Virus genome (UHGV): UHGV-0108017 | From: a virus | Length of the DNA: 25,586 bases | Strand: one strand, 5' to 3' | Shown here: positions 1 through 16,199 of the stretch, piece after piece | Layout: each line of letters opens with the position of its first letter | How positions within the stretch are numbered: the stretch's first letter is position 1 | Notes under the pieces: generated by a model | Seen by the model: only the letters and a program-made list of their open reading frames with translations | Told to the model about the DNA's origin: nothing | The model's database searches: none | Translations under genes and position numbers: made by a program

Positions 1-54
1 CATATTGGTCATAGCGCTATCCTTCACGGCTGCATTATATAAAGAGGTAAATCA

Positions 55-67
55 TTTGATACTGCTG
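55..67 (+). repeat. left-end repeat copy 1 (TTTGATACTGCTG), candidate transposase-binding site L1
   Basis: 13-bp motif recurs at 159-171 and 201-213 in direct orientation; followed by AAAAATCCGGG, reminiscent of the Mu L1 region as recalled. Confidence 0.5.
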
Positions 68-158
68 AAAAATCCGGGAGGAAAGTGGATCAAACGGGAT
101 TTGATGGGATAAAACAAACAGTTATGACGTAAAACAGTGTTATGCGCACAACATGTGA

Positions 159-171
159 TTTGATACTACTG
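159..171 (+). repeat. left-end repeat copy 2 (TTTGATACTACTG), candidate transposase-binding site L2
   Basis: Exact 13-mer shared with 201-213; 104 bp from copy 1, close to the Mu L1-L2 spacing as recalled. Confidence 0.5.
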
Positions 172-200
172 TCGCAAAGAAAGCTAAAAACGAAAAAATA

Positions 201-213
201 TTTGATACTACTG
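201..213 (+). repeat. left-end repeat copy 3 (TTTGATACTACTG), candidate transposase-binding site L3
   Basis: Exact 13-mer identical to copy 2; 42 bp downstream of it, close to the Mu L2-L3 spacing as recalled. Confidence 0.5.
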
Positions 214-239
214 ATTTCTGCGATTTTAACGTTTTAAAC

Positions 240-281
240 AGGTTAAAAAACCAGCCGCGGGCTATTGGAATTAGCCCGCCT
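240..281 (-). terminator. putative rho-independent terminator of the repressor transcript
   Basis: 8-bp stem GCGGGCTA (257-264) / TAGCCCGC (272-279) with 7-nt loop; on the minus-strand RNA the hairpin is followed by a UUUUUU run (plus-strand A-run 245-250). Stem overlaps the stop codon at 271-273. Confidence 0.45.
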
Positions 282-855
282 TCGATTCTAAACTACTTGA
301 GAGTTTATCGCTTTCAATTTCTGCCAAAATCTCTCTAACTCTTTCATCCGATAAATGATCTAAAAGTAGAGCTGCTGCACGTTTTCGTCCTTCAAGTTGG
401 ATTAGTTCTTGATTCTCTGGTTCAAGTAACCGTGACAAGTACTTAGCTCCATTTAGCGCGAGGATTTTTGATAATCGCTCTGCCTCTGATGCTTCTAAAG
501 CACTTAGTATAGCAAGAAGGCGCTGTAGCGTTATATCTAGGGGCAATTGGACGTTTTCATCTATTTTAGGTGATATTGGTTCTATATCCTCCTTGCCAAA
601 AACAAGCCAATCAATGCTCACCCCTTCTGCAAAAGCAATCTGACCAGCTACTTGTAGAGATGGTGTCGCATCTTTCTCAAAGTAGTTGTTAAGTGTTGAG
701 AACGGTAGCCCCCACGCCTTCGCCACGGCAGTCTTGGAGCGCCCGCGCATTAACATGGCTAGGCGCTCTTTAATGCTTTCTTTTTGAAACACAGGAAAAG
801 AAAAATCACTTTCTTTTTCAGTGCTTCTTTCTTTTCTGTTAACTATATGATTCAT
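271..855 (-). CDS. prophage repressor (Mu c-like by position), HTH DNA-binding protein
   Basis: Only leftward gene, divergent from ner at the left end. Start taken at ATG 853-855 (MNHIVNRKER...); the ORF-track start at 906 is a GTG. HTH-like segment SKTAVAKAWGLPFSTLNNYF. GC much lower than the rest of the window. Confidence 0.6.
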   Translation of the reverse strand: MNHIVNRKERSTEKESDFSFPVFQKESIKERLAMLMRGRSKTAVAKAWGLPFSTLNNYFEKDATPSLQVAGQIAFAEGVSIDWLVFGKEDIEPISPKIDENVQLPLDITLQRLLAILSALEASEAERLSKILALNGAKYLSRLLEPENQELIQLEGRKRAAALLLDHLSDERVREILAEIESDKLSSSLESKAG

Positions 856-995
856 AAAGAAATATCCTTTTGTAGATAAAAACCACCAAAGAAAGAGATA
901 AAACACCTTTACTTTTCTTTTGTAGTGATCAAATATTTATATGTAGAGATTATCCGGCGGTGTTATCCGCGCAGATAACTTTTAAGGATAAACGA
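856..995. promoter_or_regulatory. divergent early promoter / operator region between repressor and ner
   Basis: Repeated TGTAG(A/T)GAT motifs (871-879, 921-929, 942-950), 18-bp near-palindrome GTTATCCGCGCAGATAAC (962-979), IHF-like GATCAAATATTTA (927-939). Confidence 0.55.
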
Positions 996-1232
996 ATGAT
1001 GTCTATAAATGAAGTTGTTAAACAGGACTGGCACCCCGCGCATGTTGTCGCGGCGGTGCATGTAAAAGGTTTTACTTTACGCTCTCTGTCCATTGAAGCC
1101 GGTTTAAACCAGGATTCTTTAAAGAATGCCCTGTACCGCAAATGCCCAAAATATGAGCGCATTATTGCTGATGCTATTGGTGTTGCTCCGGAGGAGATCT
1201 GGCCCAGCCGTTACGCTCGTAAGGTGGTATAA
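996..1232 (+). CDS. ner: Ner-like DNA-binding early regulator
   Basis: ATG 996 with AAGGA 8 nt upstream. Recognisable Ner/Nlp signature (DWHPAHVVAA...GFTLRSLS...IIADAIGVAPEEIWPSRY). Stop overlaps the RBS of A. Confidence 0.8.
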   Translation: MMSINEVVKQDWHPAHVVAAVHVKGFTLRSLSIEAGLNQDSLKNALYRKCPKYERIIADAIGVAPEEIWPSRYARKVV

Positions 1233-1234
1233 AA

Positions 1235-3322
1235 ATGTTTGTATCAGTTAATGAGCTTGTAGGGCTACCAGGTATGCCGGGAACTGCGCAAGGGGTGCGG
1301 TATTCCATAAGGAAACTGGCCTCATCTGAGCATTTCAGGCGCAAACGTGCGGGTTCAAAAACCATTGAATACAGCATCGACTGCCTCCCTCCGATTACAC
1401 AACGGGCGTTACGTGAGCGACATGTAGCTCAACTGATGGCAAGCGCCCCGCAGGAGATAACTACCCAGCCTCCTGTAAAGCGTGAACGCAAACAAAATGT
1501 TGTACAGCCTGTTGAGGCATATCGCGGTTCGCCACAATTGGTAGAAGAGCGTCTGAATGCGCTTACGGAAAATCAACGTAAAGTTGCAGAAGCGCGCATT
1601 GCTCTTGTCTGTGAAGTTCTACGAATTAGCCAGGAGCCGGGATTCAGTTGTGCCAGCGCTATACGTTTTATTGTGTCGCGGTTAGCACAGGGTAACCTGG
1701 AAGAACGCCTGGAATCTTTGGTCATTACTGCTAATGCCCGTAAAGGAAAAGAGCGAACTCTGAGCGCAATTACGCTCAAACGTTGGATAGCTGCGTTTAA
1801 CAAAGCACAGAATGCCGCAGAACGACTGCTGTTACTGGCACCAGGAAAGCGCGACGAAATAAAACCGGAAGAAATTAGCTGGCTGCCTGAATTTCTGGCG
1901 CAGTATCGTCAGGCTAACGGCAGGCCTATGTCTGAAGCCTATGAGGATTTTGTCGCTGATTGGCAGCGTCGCCATGCGGACGAACCATACATGCTGGAGG
2001 TGATGCCTTCCTATGATGTTGTCCGGTATGCCATGAAAAAACTGCCGGAAGTGGTGAAACAAAAAGGGCGCGTTACCGGCAGTGAATACCGTCAGCTTGA
2101 AGGATTCACCCGCCGCGACTGGACAGCTATGCCGGTGAATTATGTCTGGATTGGTGACGGTCACGGTATGAAGCTGAAATGTGCGCATCCGGTTCACGGG
2201 CGTCCATTTTCACCGGAAGTTACGTTTGTGATCGACGGTGGAACCCGGTTTGTGGTTGGCTGGAGTCTTGATCTTGCGGAGAACGTGTTCGCTGTTGCCG
2301 GGGCGATACAACACGGCATTCGCAATCATGGAAAACCATTCCTGTATTACTCGGATAATGGTTCCGGTGAAACGGCAGATATGCTGGATAAAGAGATCGT
2401 CGGGATTCTGCCCCGTCTGGGGATTAACCACCCCACCGGTATTGCGGGAAATCCGCAGGGACGCGGCATTATTGAACGCCTGAACCGAACATTACCGATG
2501 CGTATAGCCAGGAGGTATCGCACCTATTTCGGCAAGGGTGCTGACCGGGAATCGTTGCGAGTACTTAATCGTGATCTGCGTTCAGCGTTTAATGCCCTGC
2601 AACAGGACAAGCCACTGAGCGCCCGTCAGAAAGCCGCAATGCGCGAGCTGCCGTCCTGGTCAGAACTGATTGAGGCTATCCGTGAGGGGGTGGAGTGGTA
2701 CAACAACCGCCCACATTCTGAATTGCCGATGAAACCAAACGGAAAGCATTACAGCCCGGCAGAGTTCAGAAAAAAACGCTTAGCGGAAGAAGACACTGAA
2801 ATTGAGTGGCTGAGTGATCTTGAGCTGCGCGACATGTTCCGCCCGATGGTGGAGCGTCCGGTAAGACGCTGCGAAATCCAGTGGCTGAACAATATTTACT
2901 ACGCGCCAGAGCTGCGTGATGAACATGGTCGCAAAGTACTTATCAGCTATGACATTCACGATGCCGAGCGAATTACGGTACGCCGTAAGGACGGTAGCTT
3001 TATCTGTGAGGCGATATGGAACGGCAATAAACGCGCAGCCTTTCCTGTCACGGCTGAATATCACAAACAACAGCAGCGTATTAAAGGCATGCGCAAGCGT
3101 GCTGAGGAAAAAATTCGTGATGCAGAGGATGAAGGTATTCAGATTCTGGAACACAAACAGGCTGAACCCTGGCTGGATAATGTTTATCGCCCGGTTGGTA
3201 ATACGGTAACCATCCGGCAACAGGATTATGAGGAAGATTACGACGAAGATTATGAACGCGATTTCAGGCTGGGTTTGCAAAAACTTGCAGCCATACAGGA
3301 ACAGGATGATCCGCTGGCCTGA
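1235..3322 (+). CDS. A: DDE transposase (MuA-like)
   Basis: 695 aa immediately after ner. N-terminal winged-helix-like region resembling MuA; candidate catalytic residues D308 (WIGDGH), D375 (YYSDNGSGE), E414 (IIERLNR) by inspection. Confidence 0.85.
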   Translation: MFVSVNELVGLPGMPGTAQGVRYSIRKLASSEHFRRKRAGSKTIEYSIDCLPPITQRALRERHVAQLMASAPQEITTQPPVKRERKQNVVQPVEAYRGSPQLVEERLNALTENQRKVAEARIALVCEVLRISQEPGFSCASAIRFIVSRLAQGNLEERLESLVITANARKGKERTLSAITLKRWIAAFNKAQNAAERLLLLAPGKRDEIKPEEISWLPEFLAQYRQANGRPMSEAYEDFVADWQRRHADEPYMLEVMPSYDVVRYAMKKLPEVVKQKGRVTGSEYRQLEGFTRRDWTAMPVNYVWIGDGHGMKLKCAHPVHGRPFSPEVTFVIDGGTRFVVGWSLDLAENVFAVAGAIQHGIRNHGKPFLYYSDNGSGETADMLDKEIVGILPRLGINHPTGIAGNPQGRGIIERLNRTLPMRIARRYRTYFGKGADRESLRVLNRDLRSAFNALQQDKPLSARQKAAMRELPSWSELIEAIREGVEWYNNRPHSELPMKPNGKHYSPAEFRKKRLAEEDTEIEWLSDLELRDMFRPMVERPVRRCEIQWLNNIYYAPELRDEHGRKVLISYDIHDAERITVRRKDGSFICEAIWNGNKRAAFPVTAEYHKQQQRIKGMRKRAEEKIRDAEDEGIQILEHKQAEPWLDNVYRPVGNTVTIRQQDYEEDYDEDYERDFRLGLQKLAAIQEQDDPLA

Positions 3323-4327: not shown

Positions 4328-4341
4328 GGGGATAATAAATA

Positions 4342-4569
4342 ATGATGTCACGAAATATAAAAATGGCAACGGATGCGCAGAACTGGTTACAGGCGCGCGG
4401 GAGTCATGTAAATGAATCATATCTCGGCGTGGCGCGTCCGATTCTTGAAATCACTTACCCACCGGTGGAACTGGTAAAAAACGCGGTCAGAATTATGGAG
4501 CATAAGTCCGGGGTGGCCCGTTCTGTATGGACGGCCCGTTTTAATGGTTGCCAGATAATCTGGAGATAG
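4342..4569 (+). CDS. hypothetical early protein (at the position of kil in Mu)
   Basis: 75-aa ORF with AAGGGG RBS, immediately after B; AT-rich relative to flanking genes. No recognisable motif. Confidence 0.5.
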
Positions 4570-4576
4570 CATTTAA

Positions 4577-4789
4577 ATGATGGTGATAAATATTCACGAT
4601 AATCTGGGAATCAGTAAGTTAATCAACCTTGATAATGTCAGTGTAATGGAAACGACTGTTGAGGGCGGTATTGCTTTTGAATTTATTGATGGTCACCGGC
4701 TGGTCGTTCATGTCGGCAACCATCATCACGCAGAAGATGTGTTTTGGGAACTTAACAAAATCACAAATGCAACACCCGTTAATCAATAA
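4577..4789 (+). CDS. hypothetical early protein
   Basis: 70-aa ORF, tandem ATG start, tightly packed in the early operon; AT-rich; His-rich patch HVGNHHHAED. Confidence 0.45.
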   Translation: MMVINIHDNLGISKLINLDNVSVMETTVEGGIAFEFIDGHRLVVHVGNHHHAEDVFWELNKITNATPVNQ

Positions 4790-4796
4790 GCAGGTA

Positions 4797-5072
4797 ATGA
4801 AAATGGCAAAAGTAATCTTTGAATTTAACAATACAAGAAATATTGAGTTTCAGGATAATGGAGGTTTTGCCGTAAATATGAATGTGCGACTGGAAGAATC
4901 CTCACCTGAGGACCAGACCGGGCCACATGATGTAATGGCAGGCATCATCAAGAGCATGGCTCCTGAAATCATTAAAAAAGCGACCGAGGAGTTGTTGAAA
5001 TCAGCCAGGGAGCTTGGGCTGGAAGCCGAGGGGGAATTATTCAGCTATAACCCGAATGCAGCCAGACATTAA
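4797..5072 (+). CDS. hypothetical early protein
   Basis: Start chosen at ATG 4797 (or 4803) after the stop of the previous gene; the ORF-track entry 4659 overlaps the previous gene. Acidic C-terminal half. Confidence 0.45.
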   Translation: MKMAKVIFEFNNTRNIEFQDNGGFAVNMNVRLEESSPEDQTGPHDVMAGIIKSMAPEIIKKATEELLKSARELGLEAEGELFSYNPNAARH

Positions 5073-5092
5073 TTCACAAAGGAACGCTGACA

Positions 5093-5512
5093 ATGAACGT
5101 CAAAATCCGAAATGAAATTCAGGCATTAATCCGAATTCAGGAACGCAATAACAACGGTGGTGAATTACGCGAGTTTATTTGCGCCCGAAAAGTTGATGAT
5201 TGTGGTGAAAAGACTTACCTGATTGCTTTCGACCATTACAGCATCTGTGCGCGTTATTGCGGCGAAAGCATATCCCGCGCCATTGCATTTGGCGGTGCGT
5301 TCAACGTGGATTTATGGGAGTACGTCATGGACCGGGAATACATCTGCGCATCAGACCCTGAAGCCCGTGAAATGTGGCAGCGTATCTGGCGCGATTACCG
5401 GTTAATGGCAAAAGGCTGGGCGCGCTGCTGTTATTCCTCGCTTGCCCTGAAAGCGGTTCAGTTATCGCTGCGGCATATTCCGGCATCACTGCGCGAGCCT
5501 CTGCTGTACTGA
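5093..5512 (+). CDS. hypothetical cysteine-rich early protein
   Basis: 139 aa, AAAGGA RBS; multiple Cys (CARK, DDCGEK, SICARYCGE, YICASD, ARCC); stop overlaps the next start (TGAATG). Confidence 0.5.
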   Translation: MNVKIRNEIQALIRIQERNNNGGELREFICARKVDDCGEKTYLIAFDHYSICARYCGESISRAIAFGGAFNVDLWEYVMDREYICASDPEAREMWQRIWRDYRLMAKGWARCCYSSLALKAVQLSLRHIPASLREPLLY

Positions 5513-5812
5513 ATGGTGGCTGACATGAAGTGTAATCGTAAGCGCTGGTCACGCGAAGACCGGGAATTTATCGAAGCCAACGTCGGGAAAATGACCGTTG
5601 AAGAAATGGCGGAAAAACTGAAAGTCGCCACAACCGCCCTCCGGGCACATGCCAGAAGGCACGGAATATCATTGTGTGTATACCGAATCAGTGAACACGA
5701 CAAATATTTATGTCGTGAACTTTATAAAGAAGGGCTGGATATTCATGTCATTGCCCGAAAGATGGAATTAAGCAATCGAGCTGTATCCAGCATTGTATAC
5801 AGCGGATATTAA
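5513..5812 (+). CDS. hypothetical early protein with putative HTH-like segment
   Basis: 99 aa (alternative ATG at 5525); segment WSREDREFIEANVGKMTVEEMAEKLKVATTALRAHARRHGIS looks like a small helical DNA-binding fold; translationally coupled to the upstream gene. Confidence 0.45.
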   Translation: MVADMKCNRKRWSREDREFIEANVGKMTVEEMAEKLKVATTALRAHARRHGISLCVYRISEHDKYLCRELYKEGLDIHVIARKMELSNRAVSSIVYSGY

Positions 5813-5831
5813 TTAACAGGAGCTTTAATTT

Positions 5832-6356
5832 ATGGCTAAACCAGCAAAACGCATCAAAAGTGCCGCAGCGGCTTATGTGCCACAAAACCGCGATGCGGTG
5901 ATTACCGATATTAAACGCATCGGGGATTTACAGCGCGAAGCATCACGTCTGGAAACGGAAATGAATGATGCCATCGCGGAAATTACGGAGAAATTTGCAG
6001 CCCGGATTGCACCGATTAAAACCGATATTGAAACCCTTTCAAAAGGCGTTCAGGGATGGTGTGAAGCGAACCGCGACGAACTGACGAACGGCGGCAAAGT
6101 GAAGACGGCGAATCTTGTCACCGGTGATGTATCGTGGCGGGTCCGTCCACCATCAGTAAGTATTCGTGGTATGGATGCAGTGATGGAAACGCTGGAGCGT
6201 CTTGGCCTGCAACGCTTTATTCGCACGAAGCAGGAAATCAACAAGGAGGCGATTTTACTGGAGCCAAAAGCGGTCGCAGGTGTTGCCGGAATTACGGTTA
6301 AATCGGGAATTGAAGATTTTTCCATTATTCCGTTTGAACAGGAAGCCGGTATTTAA
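5832..6356 (+). CDS. gam: Gam, host-nuclease inhibitor (Ku-like DNA end-binding protein)
   Basis: 174 aa; translation (MAKPAKRIKSAAAAYVPQNRDAVITDIKRIG...) matches Mu Gam as I recall it, essentially end to end; AGGAG RBS 9 nt upstream. Confidence 0.85.
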   Translation: MAKPAKRIKSAAAAYVPQNRDAVITDIKRIGDLQREASRLETEMNDAIAEITEKFAARIAPIKTDIETLSKGVQGWCEANRDELTNGGKVKTANLVTGDVSWRVRPPSVSIRGMDAVMETLERLGLQRFIRTKQEINKEAILLEPKAVAGVAGITVKSGIEDFSIIPFEQEAGI

Positions 6357-6398
6357 TACCACCATTAATATTTAATTAATTCACATTCTTTTAATTAT

Positions 6399-6428
6399 GG
6401 CGCGATGCGTCAGGGGATTGCTCGCGCC
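6399..6428 (+). other. GC-rich stem-loop in an AT-rich intergenic region (no U-tract)
   Basis: 7-bp stem GGCGCGA (6399-6405) / TCGCGCC (6422-6428), 16-nt loop, within the 98-bp gap between gam and the next ORF; TTAATTAA palindrome just upstream. Confidence 0.3.
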
Positions 6429-6454
6429 TGAAACATATTACAGAGGAATAAAAC

Positions 6455-6994
6455 ATGGTTGATGCAAAAATTCTGAATGGTGTCAGCACATTATTACGGG
6501 CTTACGGACGCCTGACCTGTGGAGTTCTGGCTGAAAAAATGAATATGCTGCCCTCGTCAATGGTGTATTTCCTGCGTGATGCGGTTGATGCCGGAGTGCT
6601 CACCGAATGCAACGGATTTTATGACGTACCGCGTCCCCGTACAGAGCAGCCTGTAAGACGAAACGCAACTGAGCAGCCTGCTGTTGATGATGCGGTGTGG
6701 TGCAACTGGCGTCGCTCATTACCCTGGGTGGAAGGTAATACCATCCCTGCGCTGGCAAAAGAGTTTGCGACGGGCGTGCTGACCTGTGAGTCAGTCCACA
6801 TTGTTGCTGAGGTGGATAACAGAATGTGCGAACAGGGAATGCCCCGTTTTGTGATGGCTTATATCGATATCCGGCTGGGGCGTTTTATTTGCAGTTCAAG
6901 CGCCTGGAATATCACCGACCATGTACTGCGTTATCTCATCATTGATTTTTCATCAGCACCGGGTGTGGTGCAGGAGGCTGGTTGTGAAATTTGA
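6455..6994 (+). CDS. hypothetical early protein, possible winged-helix N-terminus
   Basis: 179 aa; AGAGGA RBS 7 nt upstream; N-terminal LLRAYGRLTCGVLAEKMNMLPSSMVYFLRDAVDAGVLTE is wHTH-like by eye. Confidence 0.5.
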   Translation: MVDAKILNGVSTLLRAYGRLTCGVLAEKMNMLPSSMVYFLRDAVDAGVLTECNGFYDVPRPRTEQPVRRNATEQPAVDDAVWCNWRRSLPWVEGNTIPALAKEFATGVLTCESVHIVAEVDNRMCEQGMPRFVMAYIDIRLGRFICSSSAWNITDHVLRYLIIDFSSAPGVVQEAGCEI

Positions 6995-7688
6995 AGACTG
7001 GGGTATTGATAAAAGTTGTGGCCGGGACGTCCTGGTGTACAAAAGCTGTAGCGTGATTGAAGGAGAAGATGCCTGGCAGGTTCTGGATATACTTCGTTCT
7101 GCTTTATGCAGAGCTGGCTATGTTACGCCAGCGTCAGTTAATGGCGGAACTGCCACTACCTGTATCAGAAAGCAACTTTATAGTTTTTATACAGCCTACA
7201 ACCGATGGTTAAAGAATGGGGCAATGGAGACGGGCGATGATGTATTTACCCGGGCTGCCGGATTATGTGCCAATGCTTACGATTATTTTGAATCAACCGG
7301 TGCAGACAGTGAAGCCGCATTAGAACAATTACATGCGGACTTTATCTCAGCAGGGCTGAATGAGAAATTGCCATTTAACCGGGACAGCAAACATTACAGA
7401 AACGAAAGCAAATTGGCCAGATGCCACCAGAATTCAGCACGTGTGGCATGGGTTGAAAAACACTGTATTAGTTCTGATTCAGAAATAACGGGGAAAAAGA
7501 CAGTCGGTGAAACATCGTATTCGTGGCTGGGGAAATTTACCACGGTGAAACAGGAATGCCCGACCTGCGGTAATGAATCCCCTGAATATCTGAAAGAGTG
7601 TCCCCATTGTGGCGGGCAGAAATGCAACCACTGTGATATGGGCGATGACACGGCGTGCATGAATTGTGAAGGTGAACAGAATGAATAA
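6984..7688 (+). CDS. hypothetical protein with C-terminal 4x CxxC zinc-ribbon cluster
   Basis: Start proposed at GTG 6984, 6 nt after AGGAGG (6972-6977); the ORF track extends to 6921 inside the upstream gene. C-terminus CPTCGN...CPHCGGQKCNHCD...CMNCEGE. Confidence 0.5.
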   Translation: MKFEDWGIDKSCGRDVLVYKSCSVIEGEDAWQVLDILRSALCRAGYVTPASVNGGTATTCIRKQLYSFYTAYNRWLKNGAMETGDDVFTRAAGLCANAYDYFESTGADSEAALEQLHADFISAGLNEKLPFNRDSKHYRNESKLARCHQNSARVAWVEKHCISSDSEITGKKTVGETSYSWLGKFTTVKQECPTCGNESPEYLKECPHCGGQKCNHCDMGDDTACMNCEGEQNE

Positions 7689-7989
7689 TGGCGTATTTAC
7701 AAAATCCGAGGAACTGACAGCGTTGTTGACGGCGGCTGGTTTTCCTGAAGATGTGATCGGTAACTTTGTGGCGGCGGTATATGCCCCGTCTTATAACCGT
7801 GCAATTGATGAGGTCATGGCGTACCGACTCGGCATTGTTGCTGAGTCACTGAGTCCTCACTGGATTATTGAAAATCTCCGCGCTATTGCTGATGGCAACG
7901 ATAAATCAGCAGCCGTTGCTGCACTGGATGTGTTACGGCAAATGAGTCTGAAATTTTATCCTGAATTTATTCTGAGGGCCGCAAAATGA
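7681..7989 (+). CDS. hypothetical early protein
   Basis: ATG 7681 overlaps the upstream stop; the ORF-track start 7666 is a GTG. 102 aa, no recognisable motif. Confidence 0.45.
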   Translation: MNNGVFTKSEELTALLTAAGFPEDVIGNFVAAVYAPSYNRAIDEVMAYRLGIVAESLSPHWIIENLRAIADGNDKSAAVAALDVLRQMSLKFYPEFILRAAK

Positions 7990-8288
7990 ACAATGAAGAT
8001 AAATTTACTCCCCTTAATATTGATAACGTCATGGCTGAAAAAAGGATGCTGGAACGTGTTCGCGCTATCGTTGAATATGGTATTAAGCATGAACTCACCG
8101 CCAGAGAAGTTCGTGACATTATCAACCGCGAAATGAATCGTCTGGAAACATTAGTGGCACTGCAAAATGAAACAGCCCGCGAGGAGTACATCCGCCGCAG
8201 GCTGGGGTTATCAGACCAGGATATTGTTACTGACGCTCATGTGTTTGAGGCTTTTGAGATCCGTCAGCATCTGGGCCTTACGAACTGA
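7986..8288 (+). CDS. hypothetical early protein (predicted helical / coiled-coil)
   Basis: 100 aa, ATGA overlap with the upstream gene; charged helical composition. Confidence 0.45.
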   Translation: MNNEDKFTPLNIDNVMAEKRMLERVRAIVEYGIKHELTAREVRDIINREMNRLETLVALQNETAREEYIRRRLGLSDQDIVTDAHVFEAFEIRQHLGLTN

Positions 8289-8300
8289 TGTGTAAATTCA

Positions 8301-14661: not shown

Positions 14662-16199
14662 TGGGCCGTATTCTGGATATTTCCGGGCAGCCGTTTGATT
14701 TTGACGATGAAATGCAGACCCGCAGCGATGAGCTGGCAATGGTCATGAAGCGCACGCAGGAGCATCCTTCCAGTGGTGTGACGCCGAACCGGGCCGCGCA
14801 GATGCTGCGTGATGCCGAACGCGGTGATCTGACCGCACAGGCTGACCTGGCCTTTGATATGGAAGAAAAGGACACCCACCTTTTTTCCGAACTGAGCAAG
14901 CGCCGCCTTGCCATTCAGGCGCTGGAATGGCGCATCGCTCCGGCACGTGATGCCAGCGCACAGGAGAAAAAAGACGCCGACATGCTGAATGAATATCTGC
15001 ATGATGCGGCGTGGTTTGAAGATGCCCTGTTTGATGCCGGTGATGCCATTCTCAAGGGTTATTCCATGCAGGAGATTGAATGGGGCTGGCTGGGCAAAAT
15101 GCGCGTGCCGGTGGCGCTGCATCATCGCGATCCGGCGCTGTTCTGCGCGAACCCCGATAATCTGAACGAATTACGTCTGCGTGATACGTCTTATCACGGG
15201 CTGGAGCTGCAACCGTTCGGCTGGTTTATGCACCGGGCCAAATCCCGCACCGGGTATGTTGGCACCAATGGCCTTGTGCGCACGCTTATCTGGCCTTTTA
15301 TTTTTAAAAACTATTCCGTGCGTGATTTTGCAGAGTTTCTGGAAATTTACGGACTCCCCATGCGCGTCGGTAAATATCCGACCGGCTCCACAAACCGTGA
15401 GAAAGCCACGCTGATGCAGGCCGTGATGGATATCGGGCGACGTGCCGGTGGCATTATTCCGATGGGGATGACGCTGGATTTTCAGAGCGCCGCAGATGGT
15501 CAGTCAGACCCCTTTATGGCGATGATTGGCTGGGCAGAAAAAGCGATTTCAAAAGCCATTCTTGGCGGCACCCTGACCACAGAGGCTGGCGATAAAGGTG
15601 CACGGTCGCTGGGTGAAGTGCATGATGAGGTTCGCCGGGAAATCCGTAACGCGGATGTGGGCCAGCTTGCCCGCAGTATTAACCGTGACCTGATTTATCC
15701 CCTGCTGGCACTGAACAGTGACAGCACCATTGATATTAACCGCCTGCCGGGCATTGTATTTGATACCAGTGAAGCGGGTGATATTACGGCACTGTCTGAC
15801 GCCATTCCGAAACTGGCGGCGGGAATGCGTATTCCGGTCTCCTGGATACAGGAAAAACTTCATATTCCACAGCCGGTCGGTGATGAAGCCGTGTTTACTG
15901 CTCAACCGGTTGTCCCGGATAACGGTCCGCAGAAAGAGGCCGCATTATCCGCTGAAGATATCCCGCAGGAGGATGATATCGACCGGATGGGCGTCTCACC
16001 GGAAGACTGGCAGCGTTCGGTTGATCCCCTGCTGAAACCCGTCATTTTTTCTGTGCTGAAAGATGGCCCGGAAGCCGCCATGAACAAAGCCGCTTCATTA
16101 TATCCGCAGATGGATGATGCAGAACTTATCGACATGCTGACCCGTGCCATTTTTGTTGCCGATATATGGGGGCGTCTGGATGCCGCAGCAGACCATTGA
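14661..16199 (+). CDS. portal protein (Mu gp29-like)
   Basis: 512 aa directly after the terminase with TAATG overlap; conserved position and size. Confidence 0.75.
   Translation: MGRILDISGQPFDFDDEMQTRSDELAMVMKRTQEHPSSGVTPNRAAQMLRDAERGDLTAQADLAFDMEEKDTHLFSELSKRRLAIQALEWRIAPARDASAQEKKDADMLNEYLHDAAWFEDALFDAGDAILKGYSMQEIEWGWLGKMRVPVALHHRDPALFCANPDNLNELRLRDTSYHGLELQPFGWFMHRAKSRTGYVGTNGLVRTLIWPFIFKNYSVRDFAEFLEIYGLPMRVGKYPTGSTNREKATLMQAVMDIGRRAGGIIPMGMTLDFQSAADGQSDPFMAMIGWAEKAISKAILGGTLTTEAGDKGARSLGEVHDEVRREIRNADVGQLARSINRDLIYPLLALNSDSTIDINRLPGIVFDTSEAGDITALSDAIPKLAAGMRIPVSWIQEKLHIPQPVGDEAVFTAQPVVPDNGPQKEAALSAEDIPQEDDIDRMGVSPEDWQRSVDPLLKPVIFSVLKDGPEAAMNKAASLYPQMDDAELIDMLTRAIFVADIWGRLDAAADH

Follow-up and report, generated by a model that had tools for sequence, protein, structure and literature searches.

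The control region at the left end of the prophage

The stretch of DNA considered here (the window) comprises 25,586 nucleotides of the virus genome UHGV-0108017. The region of interest is positions 271-995, which contain a leftward repressor gene, c, and the gap that separates it from the rightward gene ner. Bases 1-37 of the window are Escherichia coli paaY, and a Mu-like prophage begins at about position 38. Region 271-995 is probably the switch between lysogeny and lysis of this transposable prophage, which sits in E. coli paaY and is of the type of the Yersinia phages vB_YpM_5 and vB_YpM_6. Sequence comparisons suggest that a repressor with a helix-turn-helix (HTH) domain of the phage 434 type acts on GTAGWGAT sites, and that Ner acts on an array of TTATCCG repeats and a palindrome. 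In other respects, 271-995 is the ordinary control region expected of a temperate transposable phage. The genes and end features at the left of the prophage are as follows.

38-270, plus strand: attL, the prophage left end, with three end repeats; GC content 0.356
252-279, minus strand: terminator-like GC-rich hairpin and T-run, directly after the c stop codon
271-855, minus strand: c, repressor, 194 amino acids plus stop
996-1232, plus strand: ner, 78 amino acids; ribosome-binding site (RBS) AAGGA at 984-988
1235-3322, plus strand: A, transposase, 695 amino acids; PF02316 at residues 7-94, and PF09299
3395-4327, plus strand: B, PF09077

The layout is that of the Mu-type immunity region (Mu, D108, and SfMu) in gene order and orientation, with c pointing leftward and ner-A-B rightward, and in the distance of the c-ner gap from the left end of the prophage (819-958 bp). 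The left end is placed at about position 38 on the basis of relatives at other insertion loci, which align with the window from positions 36-38; the paaY flank ends at about 37-38. Three ATTTGATACT(G/A)CTG repeats (49-68, 153-172, and 195-214), separated by 104 and 42 bp, resemble in their spacing the L1-L2-L3 transposase end sites of Mu. The end itself, as defined by insertions at different host sites, starts with TATAAAGAGG and not with the TG of Mu, and the first end repeat begins about 12 bp inside it. The hairpin behind c is kept, with changed bases, in the aligned relatives L001, L003, and L006.

How widespread is this element? The plaque-forming phages vB_YpM_5 and vB_YpM_6 are 99.4-99.5% identical to the window over the left 1.3 kb, and the same element is found in different chromosomal genes of other E. 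coli strains; insertion at different chromosomal sites fits a transposable phage. Of 5426 complete E. coli genomes, only 12 carry the ner-A segment. Relatives, given below as numbered lineages, were collected from E. coli genomes, IMG/VR, and the protein database, and a scan of genome contigs with the repressor protein gave no confirmed relative. The genes of the c/ner region are misannotated as hypothetical in the deposited vB_YpM_5 and vB_YpM_6 genomes. Mu and D108 differ from the window in having no DNA similarity to it in the first 1.3 kb, and the window A protein is only about 22% identical to MuA.

The repressor and its exchangeable cassette

What kind of repressor does c encode? Its N-terminal HTH domain (residues ~28-86) matches PF07022 (Phage_CI_repr, 26.5 bits against a cut-off of 22) and PF01381 (HTH_3, 25.1 bits against a cut-off of 23). 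No Pfam match was found beyond the HTH, thus neither an S24 peptidase nor a C-terminal domain of the coliphage 186 CI kind is detectable. In contrast, Mu c and D108 c match PF02316 (E 5e-54 and 4e-51, respectively), the winged-helix family shared with MuA, and BLASTP of window c against Mu c returned no N-terminal match. A Mu-type repressor, as implied by the initial annotation, is therefore not what the DNA-binding end of the protein indicates. A sequence search of c against the Protein Data Bank gave no match. In an AlphaFold2 model, the N-terminal domain (pLDDT 72-77) was matched by Foldseek to 434 Cro, 434 repressor, and P22 c2, with TM-scores of 0.74-0.82 and a root-mean-square deviation of 1.7-2.2 Å over about 63 residues, in agreement with the five-helix fold of the 434/XRE group. 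The fold was assigned for this domain only. The C-terminal domain of the model is all-helical, which does not fit a cleavable repressor of the Lambda CI/LexA type, although this part of the model is not reliable enough to be interpreted.

The C-terminal half of the protein has a different affinity. When the profile of the c family was aligned by hhalign, its C-terminal ~80 residues matched Mu c (probability 85%, E 6e-6, 80 columns) and D108 c (probability 76%, E 2e-5), a moderate level of support given that the targets are single sequences. Over this stretch (window 274-600), the protein appears to be a distant homologue of the Mu and D108 repressors despite the unrelated N-terminal domains. 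A Mu-like C-terminal domain joined to an unrelated N-terminal domain suggests that the DNA-binding domain has been replaced; c looks like a Mu-type repressor in which the winged-helix domain has given way to a 434-type HTH. In Mu, the C-terminal domain of c mediates oligomerisation.

The initial annotation regarded the repressor region as a swapped immunity module comparable to that of Mu and D108. An exchangeable segment does exist, and its boundaries can be mapped by comparison with the lineages L001 and L002, which are 82% identical to the window over 38-480 and 98% identical from about 927-946 rightward through ner and A. Between 480 and ~945 there is no detectable DNA homology, with no blastn match over 480-927 and base differences continuing to ~945. 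The repressors of the window and L001 are 55% identical overall (DNA-binding domain ~58%, C-terminal domain 63%).

481-945: immunity cassette that can be exchanged, made up of the N-terminal half of c, which binds DNA, and the left and middle parts of the c-ner gap

The corresponding divergent block between Mu and D108 covers Mu 360-1519; ner lies within it, as does the I-alpha domain of A, encoded by the first ~64 codons of that gene. The block between the window and L001, by comparison, leaves out both ner and the 5' end of A. The Mu/D108 analogy thus holds in kind and not in extent. In the reading preferred here, the half of c that binds DNA is exchanged together with its operators (480-945) as an immunity cassette.

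Is base composition a further sign of this exchange? The GC content is 0.417 in c (271-855), 0.314 in the gap (856-995), and 0.397 over 271-995, compared with 0.524 for the prophage part of the window (standard deviation of sliding windows ~0.04). Composition is clearly not uniform: only about 3% of 585-nucleotide windows reach the AT content of c, almost all of them overlapping the left end. The statement that c is far more AT-rich than the rest holds insofar as c is among the most AT-rich stretches, although it is not unique, since attL is lower still and 585 nucleotides near 4553 reach 0.407, the lowest value outside the left end. This second AT-rich patch, at 4500-5000, carries small early genes and at about 0.41 over 585 nucleotides is nearly c-like; the GC content over 4328-8300 is 0.467. 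The same gradient is seen in the compared phages, as shown by the following GC contents.

Mu: c 0.41 (0.408), gap 0.27 (0.266), ner 0.46, A 0.51
D108: c 0.43, gap 0.31, ner 0.41, A 0.50
L003 (same immunity type as the window): c 0.43, gap 0.32, ner 0.48, A 0.53
L001 (different immunity type): c 0.42, gap 0.35, ner 0.48, A 0.52

Within c, the AT-richness of the swapped half (0.427) is equalled by that of the unswapped C-terminal half (0.400). Since the gradient is common to Mu, D108, and relatives of both immunity types, and the unswapped half shares it, AT-richness was rejected as evidence of horizontal replacement; low GC content is a shared property of the left end in this group of phages.

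Candidate repressor and Ner sites in the c-ner gap

Two sets of short repeats are found in and around the gap, together with the predicted early promoter, Pe, and a sequence resembling a site for integration host factor (IHF). The features are as follows.

654-661, plus strand: intragenic core copy GTAGAGAT, candidate distal operator, codons Pro65-Gln68 of c
871-879, plus strand: S1, weak candidate operator copy TGTAGATAA, family form (T/A)GTAG(A/T)TAA
894-899, plus strand: Sm, AGAGAT core copy within AAAGAAAGAGAT, AAG(A/T)GAT kept in 8 of 9 same-HTH lineages
908-936, plus strand: predicted Pe, -35 TTTACT (908-913), 17-bp spacer, -10 AAATAT (931-936), start at ~943
921-929, plus strand: S2, candidate operator copy TGTAGTGAT, exact, within the predicted Pe spacer
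927-939, plus strand: IHF-like GATCAAATATTTA, overlapping the end of S2 and the predicted Pe -10
942-950, plus strand: S3, candidate operator copy TGTAGAGAT, exact, at about +1 of the predicted Pe
949-991, plus strand: candidate Ner operator array, TTATCCG at 950-956 and 963-969, palindrome at 962-979, and GGATAA at 986-991 over the ner RBS

The initial annotation had listed three TGTAG(A/T)GAT repeats. Two of these (921-929 and 942-950) are exact, while the third, at 871-879, agrees at 7 of 9 positions; an additional exact TGTAGAGAT inside c (653-661) had been missed. The sequence GTAGWGAT occurs three times in the window against 0.61 expected, always on the plus strand and between 654 and 950, and the shorter core AGWGAT has three copies on one strand of the gap (894, 924, and 945; P = 0.00025 in shuffles of the gap). 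S1, Sm, S2, and S3 (at 871, 894, 921, and 942) lie on the same strand and are phased by 20, 30, and 21 bp, an arrangement that would place the half-sites on one face of the helix. No inverted partner of the core copies was found. A minus-strand near copy at 882-894, considered as a dyad partner for the TGTAG sites, was rejected because it varies at the TAG-equivalent positions in L003 and L004.

The sites are conserved to different degrees among lineages with the same HTH domain. In S3, GTAGAGAT is invariant in nine such lineages, and L001 and L014 have GCAGAGAT and GCATAGAT in its place. S2 takes the form TGT(A/G)GTGAT, with TTTGGTGAT in L020, and its place in L001 carries CCACATGTGGATC. The GTAG-W-TA part of S1 is invariant in nine aligned lineages and its leading T varies, being replaced by A in the Salmonella-clade lineages L012, L016, and L020 and giving AGTAG in the near-identical L005. 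At a distance of about 270-290 bp from the promoter sites, the intragenic copy retains the form GTAG(A/T)GAT together with a rare Leu codon, CTA, in eight same-HTH lineages. It is the most conserved six-codon window of the domain, and since column shuffles equal this conservation in 14-27% of cases (P = 0.14-0.27), it is regarded as a candidate distal operator only.

Which protein recognises which set of sites? The relatives provide two comparisons with opposite outcomes. In L001 and L002, Ner is 99% identical to that of the window and the N-terminal domain of A is almost unchanged, and the DNA-binding domain of c is only 58% identical. Here, S1-S3 are replaced, at the same place in the Pe spacer, by a repeat ATGTGGATCA that includes the 10-bp palindrome CCACATGTGG, while the TTATCCG/palindrome array AGATTATCCGGCGGTGTTATCCGC(G/A)CAGATAAC is kept with one base change. 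The converse is seen in the Salmonella lineages L012, L016, and L018-L020, where the DNA-binding domain of c is 79% identical to that of the window, the C-terminal domain 33%, and Ner 65%. These lineages, whose c genes are only 55-60% identical to that of the window at the DNA level, keep AAG(A/T)GAT at Sm, TGT(A/G)GTGAT at S2, and GTAGAGAT at S3, and have the downstream array changed to AGATAACACGACGGGATAATCCGAACGGTTAAC. Two further lineages, L014 and L009, have spacer repeats of their own and their own variant of an array of two direct repeats plus TAAC. In L009, a fifth type found as a prophage in the Stx (Shiga toxin) phage LC727881, the array consists of two ATATCCG copies plus TAAC. There is thus a double dissociation, in which GT(A/G)GWGAT sites track the HTH domain of the repressor and the TTATCCG/palindrome array tracks Ner. 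Because the patterns of L001 and the Salmonella lineages are opposite, the repeats are assigned to the repressor HTH and the array to Ner; the initial proposal that the TGTAG-type repeats are repressor operators agrees with this behaviour.

One shared sequence stands apart from these patterns. The 12-mer TATCCTTTTGTA by the c start in the window (863-874) is present in inverted orientation in the L001 gap (2300-2320), where it is not the c RBS. This 12-nucleotide match between the plus strand of the window and the minus strand of L001 was set aside, being partly explained by a shared RBS-like AAGGATA.

The assignment of the array to Ner is consistent with what is known of this protein family. 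Window Ner belongs to PF13693 (HTH_35, 88 bits) and is the first gene of the early operon, with its candidate operator between Pe and ner; among solved structures, EnrR (7f9h, E 4e-17) and Mu Ner (1neq, E 6e-13) are the nearest to it. The near-palindrome GTTATCCGCGCAGATAAC (962-979) can be written GTTATC-CGCGCA-GATAAC. Its symmetry was confirmed at 8 of 9 pairs (16 of 18 positions), and the initial annotation had placed it correctly just before the ner RBS; it is part of a larger TTATCCG array. As a class, such 18-bp palindromes are not rare (6 in the window against 2.8 expected). The array, which spans roughly +6 to +48 of the predicted Pe, is retained together with Ner in L001 and altered at discrete positions in L010, L012, L014, and L009, where Ner is divergent. 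At the matching position upstream of ner, D108 has an inverted repeat, CCGTGAGCTAC...GTAGCTCACGG, which is presumably the D108 Ner operator. EnrR, a relative of Ner, occupies palindromic DNA as a pair of tightly packed monomers (PMC9023278), and this mode of binding is compatible with GTTATC-N6-GATAAC; the window site differs from the AT-rich EnrR consensus in its GC-rich centre (CCGCGC) and in having an extra direct half-site upstream. The TTATCCG repeats and GTTATC-N6-GATAAC are thus the probable Ner operator. Elsewhere in the window, TTATCCG is over-represented (8 against 2.9 expected), and an inverted pair (15916/15945, spanning 15916-15951, 29 bp apart) is found in coding sequence of the late region.

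Alignments to relatives and to the Mu Pe annotation served to place the promoter itself. The sequence CTTTACTTTT in the Pe region is invariant in nine same-HTH lineages, and TTTACA-17-AATACT stands in the same register in L001. In Mu, Pe is annotated (AF083977) as GCTTTACA-17-TATCTT, and its CTTTAC context at -35 and its 17-bp spacer agree with the window. Position 941 is the only variable one in 906-1018 among lineages with ~80% identical c genes. At this position, between the predicted -10 and S3, the window has A (TATATGTAG) and the other aligned TGTAG-type relatives have C (TATCTGTAG), with TACCCGTAG in L019. No convincing promoter for c (Pc) could be placed; a minus-strand candidate, TTATCT-18-GATAAT (978-949), was rejected since it is not conserved in the Salmonella clade.

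An IHF-like sequence at 927-939 had also been reported, and it is indeed present. Its core, ATCAANNNNTTR (928-939), is the sole match in the window against 2.2 expected. The reading as an IHF site is nevertheless weak: the IHF consensus calls for W at the first base, which here is G, the sequence lies on the predicted -10, and the core, although retained by the E. coli clade, L010, and L001, is lost in six of 11 relatives (L012, L016, L018, L019, L020, and L014). Regulation by Dam through the GATC at 927-930 was considered and rejected, as this GATC is lost in L016 and L018.

Together, these features suggest a mechanism. The repressor would bind four same-strand half-sites with the core (G)TAG-W-GAT or AGWGAT in the 140-bp gap; because S2 falls within the Pe spacer and S3 on the start site, cooperatively bound repressor would exclude RNA polymerase, and the fifth copy within c (654-661) may allow looping. 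From its array downstream of Pe, Ner would throttle early transcription and probably transcription of c as well. Direct results of the comparisons are the gene identities, the domain families, the mosaic boundary, the enrichment of the motifs, and their co-variation with the proteins; the promoter position, the pairing of each motif with a protein, and cooperativity or looping are inferred.

How does this arrangement compare with other repressor systems? Repressors of the 434/P22/XRE group (HTH_3, and Phage_CI_repr as in coliphage 186 CI) share with the window the five-helix HTH and multiple operators over the early promoter. They differ in that window c lacks S24 autocleavage or a detectable 186-CI C-terminal domain and has one resembling that of Mu c, and in that the candidate operators of the window are same-strand repeats and not dyads; the L001 type, by contrast, has the 10-bp palindrome among its spacer repeats. 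In P2, the C operator consists of two direct repeats about 22 bp apart that flank the Pe -10, and C is a single-domain protein of ~99 amino acids in a non-transposable phage. The direct repeats S2 and S3, which are 21 bp apart and bracket the predicted -10, are similar to this operator; the likeness is a lead only, and no membership is claimed.

Several observations weigh against the proposed switch. Direct rather than inverted repeats are unusual for dimers of 434-type HTH proteins. S1 is weak and varies both within the same-HTH group and in the near-identical L005, and the conservation of the intragenic copy does not reach significance when tested as a scan. The types that are putatively hetero-immune have the same recognition-helix segment, (F/Y)STLNNY, thus a difference in specificity is read from the operators alone. 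The AlphaFold2 model of c is poor overall (pLDDT 60.5, pTM 0.29). A sigma-70 scan of 1-1300 found no site at a threshold of 9/12, and Pe falls below it; the consensus scan being empty at this threshold, we infer the position of Pe. Recent recombination, and not selection, could account for part of the invariance of 906-1018 among E. coli lineages. Finally, the paper describing vB_YpM_5 and vB_YpM_6 names "C-repressor and Ner" only generically (PMC10434027).

Operators and a possible transposition enhancer

Mu is the textbook case of a repressor and a transposase with a common DNA-binding fold, in competition for a single operator/enhancer. The Mu enhancer overlaps the operators and is bound by the I-alpha domain of MuA (PMC3145075, PMC3362531). 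In the window, the N-terminus of A is an I-alpha-like domain of the enhancer-binding type, in which PF02316 (residues 7-94) aligns with MuA. The repressor, however, has a 434/XRE HTH that is not homologous to I-alpha, therefore the operator/enhancer logic of Mu cannot simply be assumed here. If an enhancer is present, which sequences does the transposase recognise?

777-921, both strands: cluster of TTTCTTTT octamers (777 plus, 796 minus, 810 plus, 828 plus, and 914 plus), spanning the 5' end of c and the gap, with a minus-strand near copy at ~886-894

One possibility, tentative as it is, is that repressor and transposase sites are interleaved and yet separate: the TTTCTTTT array would contain the I-alpha sites of A and serve as the enhancer, GTAGWGAT would be recognised by the repressor only, and the repressor would block transposition by occupancy and not through shared recognition. 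The octamer occurs six times in the window against 1.44 expected, and five of the six lie within 145 bp (777-921), a number never reached in 5000 dinucleotide-preserving shuffles of 760-930 (mean 0.28, maximum 3). Its positions are conserved in L001 and L014, which differ in immunity and in which one copy (d) is non-coding. Moreover, one copy is encoded by c codons 24-27 (CAA AAA GAA AGC), whose synonymous sites do not vary in eight lineages. An enhancer independent of the immunity type would also accord with a cassette that, unlike that of Mu and D108, leaves out the I-alpha domain of A. In Mu, we take the comparable region to be O1 with CTTTT-type motifs running into the first codons of c, which is our own reading of the Mu sequence and not a tested consensus. 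Conversely, three of the copies lie in Lys/Glu-rich coding sequence, one falls on the ribosome-binding region of c in L001 and L014, and L001 lacks the copy in the Pe spacer. Since Lys/Glu-rich coding, translation signals such as an RBS, or A-tract curvature could account for much of the array, its standing as a candidate immunity-independent enhancer is doubtful.

A closer parallel with Mu is less probable still, and rather unlikely on the present comparisons. The TGTAG repeats would then double as the transposition enhancer, repressor and transposase would compete for them, and the IHF site (927-939) would bend the DNA between operator clusters, as in the Mu enhancer, which overlaps O1-O3 and has two clusters of MuA sites split by an IHF site (PMC3145075). 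The Mu-like distance of the gap from the left end, the I-alpha-like domain retained by A, and the location in the gap of the only ATCAANNNNTTR of the window all favour this idea. However, c (HTH_3/PF07022) is not homologous to the N-terminal domain of A (PF02316), and L001 lacks the TGTAG repeats although its A N-terminal domain is nearly unchanged, with two conservative changes in the first ~80 residues. As L001 shares I-alpha and not the operator repeats, these are unlikely to be I-alpha sites, and cannot be unless the enhancer is dispensable. The Mu arrangement of an IHF site between two operator clusters is not evident in the gap, and the IHF-like core on the predicted -10 is lost in five Salmonella-clade lineages and L014.

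It is highly improbable that the repeats are promoter-associated or chance AT-rich sequences kept by shared ancestry and not bound by proteins: the palindrome class is common, as mentioned above, and TGTAGWGAT with one mismatch is not enriched in the window as a whole (4 against 5.9 expected), but the exact cores are enriched and clustered on one strand, the sites are conserved where c genes have diverged to 55-60% DNA identity, and the motifs co-vary cleanly with the HTH domain at one end and with Ner at the other.

The reading preferred here remains that of a switch in which a 434-type repressor and Ner act on separate sets of sites. The initial annotation was right about the operators, the Ner site, and the existence of a cassette, and was not borne out on AT-richness as evidence of a swap, on an extent like that of Mu/D108, or on a Mu-type repressor; to this picture, the present analysis adds a domain-replaced repressor, a mapped cassette boundary, the double dissociation of motifs and proteins, and the TTTCTTTT array.

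What would this mean for the coupling of immunity and transposition? We offer as a speculation that the exchange of a winged helix for a 434-type HTH, with the Mu-type C-terminal domain kept, uncouples operator recognition from enhancer recognition, and that I-alpha binds the separate TTTCTTTT array irrespective of immunity type. If this is true, an immunity cassette could be exchanged while the transposase stays as it is, and the repressor would silence transposition by occupancy or looping and not by competing for identical sequences. This relative of Mu, found in E. coli, Salmonella, and Edwardsiella, offers a natural test of whether the coupling of immunity and transposition seen in Mu requires shared recognition, with several natural operator/repressor pairs available in an otherwise near-identical background.

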